Notes: a model not told the origin generated them from the sequence alone. Counted from the first letter of the stretch, positions 46,480 through 46,793 are shown. The stretch is 64,000 bases of DNA from Candidatus Poribacteria bacterium (GCA_965208325.1 OZ242326.1:4643649-4707648); one strand, 5' to 3'. Made by a program: numbers and translations.

Positions 46480-46579
46480 TTTACGCTCCTTAAGATTCAG
46501 TGGTAGGATTGAGAATCGAGGCTAGGAAGCCTTTCCCACAATCCAGTGAATAAAATTTTGGTTGCAACGACCACCGATC

Positions 46580-46618
46580 AAAAAAAAAGCGAGGGTGGAC
46601 GCCGTACAGCGCCCTCGC
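46580..46618 (-). terminator. Intrinsic terminator upstream of terS, on the same strand
   Basis: Minus strand GCGAGGG-CGCTGTACGGCG-TCCA-CCCTCGC followed by T9. Confidence 0.8.
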
Positions 46619-46757
46619 CTCGCCGTAAAAATATTTTTGTATTTCAGTTGAAACAGTATTGAGCAGCTAATTCTGACTCGTTACCGCTTCTCGCACACCC
46701 GCCGTAGAGTGTTGAGGTTGATGACAGTTAGTTCAAATCCTCCATGTATCGGGAATT
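46580..46757 (-). ncRNA. Candidate ~180-nt sRNA or attenuator leader
   Basis: Bounded by a consensus promoter and a strong terminator; no convincing ORF; family not recognised. Confidence 0.45.
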
Positions 46758-46763
46758 TCCAAG

Positions 46764-46793
46764 ATTATACGGAACGGTTATTCAGGTTGTCAA
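46764..46793 (-). promoter_or_regulatory. sigma70 promoter pointing at terS-terL
   Basis: Minus strand TTGACA-N18-TATAAT with a T-rich upstream tract. Confidence 0.75.

Follow-up and report, generated by a model that had tools for sequence, protein, structure and literature searches.

How are two terminase genes that sit among ordinary host genes controlled, and is the DNA ahead of them a working regulatory region? The pair that raises this question lies on the minus strand of a 64,000-nt stretch (the window, by which we mean the whole stretch analysed) of a Candidatus Poribacteria genome (G000), which consists of a single 4.7-Mb contig and has Planctomycete-type domains in neighbouring loci. 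The downstream gene, terL (45884-44130, minus strand, 584 aa; frame open from 46022, with the ATG at 45884 as the probable start, judged from its context), matches phrog_38 with an E-value of 8.5e-45 over residues 82-610 and, weakly, TIGR01630 at its C-terminus, and no match was found for it in Pfam or among PDB sequences. Its translation, inspected by eye, presents a P-loop-like PRGSAKST plus LVVADD, and by sequence family membership its product is a terminase large subunit. The start of terL overlaps by 23 nt the end of a terS-like gene (46479-45862, minus strand, 205 aa), which was recognised from a family alignment and from gene order. The small protein has no match in Pfam, PHROG or NCBIfam; it has a helical N-terminal domain with an ...AIRTCNP motif that is common to the small genes of the other pairs, followed by a long helix, and it belongs to a TerS family of 13 members that are 54-100% identical to the window protein over the full length. 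A phylum-wide search outside the genus retrieved TerS relatives of only 36-40% identity, and a search of metagenome contigs with the TerS alignment gave 592 pattern matches, none of which was confirmed. The structural model of TerS is of low confidence (mean pLDDT 50, with helices at 9-54 and 62-108), and its best Foldseek rows, the G20c/P74-26 small terminases, are not significant (E 0.5-2). The dN/dS ratios against the orthologs of the sister species (G002) are 0.37 for terL and 0.71 for terS and, on the basis of these values and of the 13-member TerS family, both genes look functional.

The genome holds five full-length copies of terL, each with a small gene (167-205 aa) ahead of it that overlaps it, and the five intact terS-terL pairs, two-gene units of ~2.5 kb, each sit among ordinary host or IS genes. 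In the window, the pair has an HtrA-type protease gene downstream and, upstream, the gene for a metalloprotease/LRR/Big_1 surface protein. This protein (47166-50243, minus strand, 1025 aa) is encoded immediately upstream of the leader, and combines reprolysin-like metalloprotease motifs, leucine-rich repeats and Big_1/invasin-type Ig domains. A prophage setting was rejected in view of the host neighbours and of searches of the genome for P22-type portal, HK97-type portal and HK97 capsid families, which found none. Among the defence families of PADLOC, only one weak DrmC-like match (E 5.5e-4) was obtained on the pairs, to the small protein of another pair, and full-text literature searches found no publication on lone terminases in Poribacteria or Planctomycetes. 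Phage satellites of the SaPI/PICI type have their own small terminase and no full virion module, and are switched on by a helper phage. The terS-terL pair resembles them in being a set of host-resident packaging genes without a full virion module, for which switching by a helper phage is possible, but it differs from them in that no integrase, replication or repressor module is found beside it, in that terL is also present, and in that no helper phage is known. Elsewhere in the genome (G000 ~1583992-1585790), the gene for a 382-aa protein with a TerS-like N-terminus (L025:3993-5141, minus strand; 34% identity to TerS residues 6-92) directly follows a PemK/MazF-type toxin gene (L025:5338-5790, minus strand), with no terL alongside.

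A preliminary description of the region had placed a TTGACA-N18-TATAAT promoter ahead of terS, and our analysis confirms it at 46793-46764 on the minus strand (-35 at 46793-46788, 18-nt spacer, -10 at 46769-46764). This sigma-70-type site scores 12/12, and is the sole perfect one among the seven promoter-like sites given by a consensus scan of 44000-50000, a number to be compared with 5.9 +/- 2.0 in shuffled sequences. In the whole genome, 71 perfect TTGACA-N16-18-TATAAT sites are observed against 1.8 expected from composition, several of them preceding tRNA genes and one preceding the rRNA operon of the window, which indicates that the organism uses the TTGACA/TATAAT consensus; the site at 46793-46764 is a predicted sigma-70 promoter. 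A foldable leader or short RNA of ~175-180 nt (46757-46580, minus strand) is predicted to run from a probable start near 46757, ~7 nt past the -10 hexamer, to the U-run.

Some 140 nt past the promoter, the sequence GGCGAGGCGAGGGCGCTGTACGGCGTCCACCCTCGC is followed by nine T residues (46588-46580). A simple pattern scan omitted this hairpin because the stem is bulged, and folding recovers it as GGCGAGG.G.GGGCGCU/GGCGUCC.CCCUCGCU, with 15 pairs and an energy of -23.7 to -24.3 kcal/mol. Folding and the alignments of copies (see below) place the element, with GGCGAGGCGAGGGCGCTG as its 5' arm and with the T9, at 46624-46580 (minus strand) and, as a GC-rich stem-loop directly before a U-run on the transcribed strand, it is a predicted intrinsic (Rho-independent) terminator. 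It had been described at 46618-46580, about 100 nt before terS; the hairpin, the T9 and the distance stand (the terS ATG at 46479 is 101 nt past the T-run), but the stem already starts at 46624. The whole 291-nt leader folds at -86.7 kcal/mol (z = -2.6 against shuffles). The five-codon frame MEDLN*, which had been noted in the leader together with a GGAGGA, does exist (46745-46728, minus strand), but the GGAGGA sits inside the frame and not upstream of it, so that the frame has no ribosome-binding site and is probably not translated. Between the terminator and the ribosome-binding site of terS, a second abundant dispersed repeat is inserted (46554-46507, minus strand), with many matches in the genome and a sponge-metagenome depth of up to 4092 in its bin, and the Shine-Dalgarno sequence AAGGAG (46491-46486, minus strand) lies 6 nt before the terS ATG. 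No promoter-like site was given by the consensus scan between 46579 and 46480, and therefore terS-terL should need read-through of the terminator, which supports the original proposal.

From these features, together with the conservation pattern and the family of copies presented below, we infer transcription, termination and the dependence of terS-terL on read-through. The explanation that we prefer, and in which our confidence is about even, is that the leader is attenuating, so that terS-terL depend on read-through, and that it is part of a conserved region acting in cis. The consensus sigma-70 promoter would fire into a strong intrinsic terminator and give a leader RNA of ~175 nt, terS-terL would be expressed only by the polymerases that read through the terminator, and this read-through would be either a constitutive leak or due to a trans-acting factor. 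The promoter, the AT-rich 5' stretch, the GC hairpin with its T-run, and the 10-nt-phased GGRCAC iterons in the 5' half of terS would form one cis module of ~450 nt. At the seven further loci to which it has been copied, the module has lost its coding capacity by decay, with its signals remaining under constraint.

Is the termination regulated? Two mechanisms had been suggested, a riboswitch or attenuator and an antitermination of the lambda Q type, and neither found support. The leader has a minimum free energy of -61.3 kcal/mol, to be compared with -41.1 kcal/mol when the 5' arm is kept unpaired, -44.9 kcal/mol when the 3' arm is kept unpaired, and -44.2 kcal/mol when the 5' arm is restricted to upstream pairing. 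Prevention of the terminator thus costs 16-20 kcal/mol, and a riboswitch or attenuator with a competing fold was rejected. The Infernal/Rfam search that had been recommended for the leader yielded no family either, since at the gathering threshold only rRNA and tRNA matched in the whole window, and at E <= 10 there were no matches in 46300-47300. In addition, the leader sequence contains no tandem repeats, by which a leader of the type III toxin-antitoxin (ToxIN-like) kind would be recognised. With no alternative leader structure, the sequence gives no sign of regulated, as opposed to constitutive, termination, and read-through should be a fixed leak or else need a trans-acting factor.

The pR'-tR' region of lambda comprises a constitutive promoter, a '6S RNA' of ~180-190 nt and a strong intrinsic terminator, with antitermination by Q for the downstream genes. 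The leader described here resembles it in the consensus promoter, in the short terminated RNA (predicted here) and in the downstream terminase genes needing read-through. In contrast to lambda, the downstream operon consists only of terS-terL, without lysis, head or tail genes, the leader module is present in multiple copies, and no Q-family gene was found in the genome. The genome search for an antiterminator that had been proposed gave no match to the Q-type families PF06530 and PF03589 in the organism's own genome, the controls matching in E. coli, and NusG is present as a single copy with no second paralog. Because Q, a defining part of the lambda system, was sought and not found, we do not class the leader as a lambda-type system; given that no antitermination factor was found in the genome, such a factor might come from an infecting phage or be unrelated to these families.

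The region upstream of terS has relatives elsewhere in the genome. The promoter, the hairpin and the 5' terS DNA make up a unit of ~450 nt, for which a covariance model of the short RNA found eight copies in the window's own genome (G000), seven in the sister species (G002) and one in a third species (G001), and none in G003 and 27 other relatives; an exact-motif search agrees with this distribution. The putative control module is, in other words, copied to seven further loci of the genome. In the window, the extent homologous to the dispersed units is 46801-46040 (minus strand), which includes the promoter, the hairpin and terS codons ~29-150. BLAST retrieved nine older copies in the same genome, besides a recent duplicate, and six or seven of the nine run from the promoter through ~45 nt of AT-rich sequence, the hairpin/T-run and a remnant of the ribosome-binding site to DNA corresponding to terS codons ~29-150. 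The older copies are without terS codons 1-28, the repeat at 46554-46507, and a stem-loop-forming leader segment of ~93 nt (46749-46657, minus strand) that is confined to the intact pair, the recent duplicate and the G002 ortholog of the pair, and is missing in the alignments of the seven short dispersed copies. The short-leader form is also found in sponge-metagenome contigs of three runs, with a 128-nt skip and 40 other letters instead. The copies have a common left edge, situated ~10 nt upstream of the -35, and ragged right edges, and no terminal inverted repeat of the unit, such as would mark a MITE-like non-autonomous transposon, was seen. The exact 18-mer of the 5' arm occurs in at least 117 stretches of genome contigs, with 2 of the 80 listed records belonging to Poribacteria and the others taken as chance matches, and a longer hairpin pattern gave no matches in metagenome contigs. 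No dispersed leader fragments of the other four terS-terL pairs were found in the genome.

The terS-like part of the older copies contains stops or frame changes in eight of nine cases, and the ninth (c3913) is a fragment of only 55 residues, so that the possibility of the dispersed copies being coding paralogs was rejected; with the exception of the intact pair and of its recent duplicate, the units have a terS part that is, as read from its frame, a pseudogene. The genes downstream of the copies are mutually unrelated (lectin-like, cysteine desulfurase, TAtT, ECF sigma, glyoxalase), and the G002 copies are found at places orthologous to those of the G000 copies. An intact terS-terL follows only one of the eight copies in G000, but the other seven keep their promoter and hairpin as well, and therefore the conserved function of the module is not only the control of terS-terL. 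One decayed unit, c4325 (L026 ~5697-5725, G000 4325697), presents a second perfect promoter at its right end, just before a TAtT-family gene, and may have been co-opted as a promoter region.

The conservation of the unit is concentrated in blocks. In seven independent copies, these are the two promoter hexamers (-35 and -10), a run of 17 invariant columns in the 5' arm, and CCTCG with the T-run, followed in the iteron part by GTGTCC, a GGGCAC-AAAA-GGGCAC-AAAA-GGACAC array, and further GTGTCC/GGACAC motifs; all nine copies inspected with upstream sequence have a TTGACA-like -35 and a TAnAAT -10. When the G000 and G002 members of six orthologous unit pairs are compared, the 5' arm of the hairpin (18 nt) shows one difference in 108 positions (0.9%), and the differences amount to 8.8% in the loop and 3' arm, 12.3% in the T-run, 8.6% in the promoter and 5' leader, 9.3% in the 100 nt past the T-run, 12.9% in the terS-derived core, 10.3% at 421-900 nt downstream, and 22.1% at 121-400 nt upstream. 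For the leader of the intact pair, the hairpin, the T9 and the next 21 nt are identical to the G002 ortholog, and the remaining leader differs at ~1 in 12 positions, as counted by eye. In a 381-nt sponge-metagenome contig (X6, record 21), at least 16 of 20 differences fall in 46368-46550, and few in 46551-46696. The hairpin is predicted to form in each of the 14 aligned copies, at -14.7 to -27.8 kcal/mol, with a nearly invariant 5' arm, and the arrangement first described at this locus is conserved in relatives. The changes in the 3' arm mostly keep pairing via G-U, and the sense hairpin is stabler than the antisense one in 12 of the 14 rows, six of which are orthologs and not independent (mean -19.9 versus -16.2 kcal/mol). 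This stability of the sense strand and the G-U drift fit an RNA made from the strand of the promoter. The invariance of the 5' arm, in the face of a drifting 3' arm, points to an additional sequence-specific role or partner, for which a plain terminator would have no need. Gene conversion among the copies may also have caused this invariance, because all the comparative data come from three closely related species.

The same conservation can be read in terms of an independent, multi-copy gene for a trans-acting sRNA, ~95 nt long in the dispersed copies and ~175 nt here, formed by the promoter and hairpin. The position of such a gene before terS would be historical, and terS-terL would be expressed from an unrecognised weak promoter. 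We hold this to be doubtful. That the promoter, hairpin and T-run are kept in copies without an intact gene behind them is in line with it, but the ~300 nt of pseudo-terS DNA and iterons that are attached to them, block-conserved in every copy, are left unexplained. The 18 invariant nt of the 5' arm could serve for binding or as a seed, and the changes in the 3' arm, being compatible with G-U pairing, fit an RNA, but the 5' part of the RNA, the usual place of a seed, is AT-rich and poorly conserved, and a search on both strands for targets complementary to the 5' arm, with up to two mismatches, matched only the copies themselves. There is also no match to an Rfam family. On the other side, other short units with a perfect promoter and a hairpin/T-run (<~80 nt) are found, for example at G000 1350752, 1710529, 2918492 and 4455719, and such a gene format is therefore common here. 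As an observation in its own right, the promoter-hairpin units at 1350752(+), 1710529(-), 2918492(-), 4036904(-) and 4455719(-) belong to at least two sequence families, and are candidate small RNA genes.

The recent duplicate corresponds to window positions 47093-45668 and is located at G000:C1:3242381-3240920 (L020 ~6921-8382), over 1.4 kb with 98% identity. Besides the leader and terS, it retains ~350 nt from the beginning of the long terL frame, of which ~217 nt lie past the probable start. Its terS is intact, with 96% amino acid identity and changes clustered at residues 134-150, and its terL is truncated where a TGTAGGTTGGGT repeat begins; the duplicate may be an orphan small-terminase gene with a full leader. 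The left edge of the duplication is occupied by an abundant repeat of the TGTAGGTTGGGTAGAGCG ... ACCCAAC type (47093-46958, minus strand), which has many matches in the genome, with 472 copies of the core motif, and shows very high metagenome depth at 46958-47093. Short dispersed repeats, often arranged in tandem, are found at high density throughout the genome; they include TGTAGGTTGGGTAGAGCG...ACCCAAC, AATCATAGCCCATCATTTAATCACACGAATCACAGTTCAGACA (at least 71 copies) and GGGAGAGGCTTCCCAGCCTCGATT, and these repeats reach very high depth in sponge metagenomes. The motif CATCATTYAATCACACAAATCACA, considered as a 'left-end' motif common to several pairs, was rejected as a general repeat with 71 copies in the genome, and a composite element bounded by TGTAGGTTGGGT repeats was rejected in general, as it holds only for the duplicate and c391.

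Copies of the TGTAGGTTGGGT repeat bound the duplicate on both sides, and five of the eight units have one of this type less than 500 nt upstream. Together with the confinement of the unit family to one genus, this favours a reading of the dispersed copies as neutral debris, in which a leader-terS fragment was spread via abundant repeats, its conservation would result from recency or gene conversion, and the promoter and terminator would have no special regulatory meaning. In our view this is very unlikely. In the terS-derived part, the identity between paralogous copies is only 67-87%, yet 17 columns of the 5' arm are invariant in the seven independent copies; orthologous pairs diverge by 0.9% in the arm versus 9-13% elsewhere in or beside the unit; the conservation is block-wise and falls on recognisable signals; and the copies occupy orthologous places in G000 and G002, and so are not recent. 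Neutral debris would fit the recent duplicate but not the block-wise constraint, and the promoter, the hairpin arm and the iterons appear to be maintained for a reason that is independent of terS coding.

The iterons bring in a further reading of the unit. Three GGGCAC iterons, parted by A/T tracts and with an exact 10-nt period, lie inside terS at 46270-46245 (minus strand; codons E-G-T-K-G-H-F-R-A-H), and a motif count adds GTGCCC and GGACAC at 46130-46125 and 46100-46095 (minus strand). GGRCAC/GTGYCC motifs number five in 291 nt versus 0.68 per kb genome-wide, a ~25-fold enrichment, and the GGGCAC iterons are kept in non-coding copies with a broken frame. A protein, for which TerS is the most plausible candidate, would bind the iterons. 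In the phages P22 (gene 3), SPP1 (pacL-pacC-pacR) and P1 (pacA), the pac sites lie in or beside terS, and promoters are embedded in some phage pac regions. In one published account, the small terminase is described as recognising the pac site, and look-alike pseudo-pac sites in the chromosome as starting the packaging of host DNA (PMC10996546). The unit is similar to the pac of a headful phage in that short motifs are found in helical phase in or next to a small-terminase gene, with look-alikes elsewhere in the chromosome. It differs from pseudo-pac sites in that each look-alike is a complete 450-nt paralogous copy that has a promoter and terminator of its own, and not a chance match, and from headful phages in that no capsid genes are known in this genome.

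It is unlikely that the unit is mainly a pac-like recognition region acting at the level of DNA, in which TerS would bind the phased GGRCAC motifs, the GC arm would be a site of recognition or cutting, the dispersed copies would be additional entry sites in the chromosome, and the promoter and terminator would simply be embedded. The enrichment and exact phasing of the iterons inside terS and their conservation in copies with a broken reading frame are consistent with this, as is the conserved extent, which goes from the -35 to the last GGRCAC and leaves out the ribosome-binding site, codons 1-28 and the 93-nt segment. However, a transcription factor could equally impose a sequence-specific constraint, the G-U-tolerant changes in the 3' arm favour a role of the hairpin as RNA and, with no portal or HK97 capsid family found, there is nothing known to package into.

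A second lineage of terS-terL, represented by the L033 pair, bears both on this pac-like role and on the attenuating leader that we prefer. This pair shows no sequence similarity to the window leader, and has, relative to terS, a TTGACA-N17-TATTAT promoter at -336, a hairpin of -22 to -25 kcal/mol with a T9 at -192, and five TTGTAA iterons at -116, -109, -61 (inverted), -53 and -43, after which terS follows. In the L033 orthologs of G001 and G003, a structured region and T-run are present at the matching position, and the iterons have changed in concert to ATGTAA/TTACAT (5/5 in G001 and 4/5 in G003, the fifth being GTGTAA), with the inverted copy changed in the complementary sense. Such a concerted change is what the co-evolution of sites with their binding protein should produce, and this signature favours pac-like recognition. 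The predicted layout of promoter, hairpin/T-run and terS recurs, then, in a second, sequence-unrelated lineage, but it is absent from the other three pairs of the genome: in two of them the promoter directly adjoins the ATG, and in the third it is located at -172 and no terminator follows. Thus, the layout first described ahead of the window's terminase genes is recurrent but not universal among terS-terL pairs. The L031 and L032 pairs (G000 364772 and 904339), as well as the L008 pair of G001, have a TTGACA...TAnnnT promoter that ends ~10 nt short of the terS ATG, and this suggests that their mRNAs are leaderless or nearly so.

The sRNA and pac-like readings are not mutually exclusive; in the pac-like one, the promoter, the GC element and the iterons would form one nucleoprotein site. 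What would be new in the attenuating leader is a terminator-gated terminase leader on a stand-alone pair, embedded in a multiplied cis module; the gating itself resembles known logic. A more far-reaching scheme, which we consider quite improbable, is that the capsid-less terS-terL is silenced by the terminator and switched on by phage antitermination, that TerS recognises its own and the seven dispersed GGRCAC modules, and that host DNA is loaded into phage capsids. If this were true, the pair would work as a minimal hijacker or as a defence, or else as a transduction system that is under host control and has pac sites built in.

Lone terminase pairs recur in Poribacteria, and at least two of their lineages carry an organised control region, with a promoter, a terminator and lineage-specific iterons. 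One such control region has been multiplied in the genome, with the signals, and not the coding sequence, under constraint. The module supplies concrete cis elements and a hypothesis for the TerS binding site, and the control region offers a way to ask whether these genes belong to a regulated working module, phage-responsive or chromosome-acting, or are prophage debris. If the dispersed units are terminase entry sites, they would represent a new route of host-directed DNA packaging.
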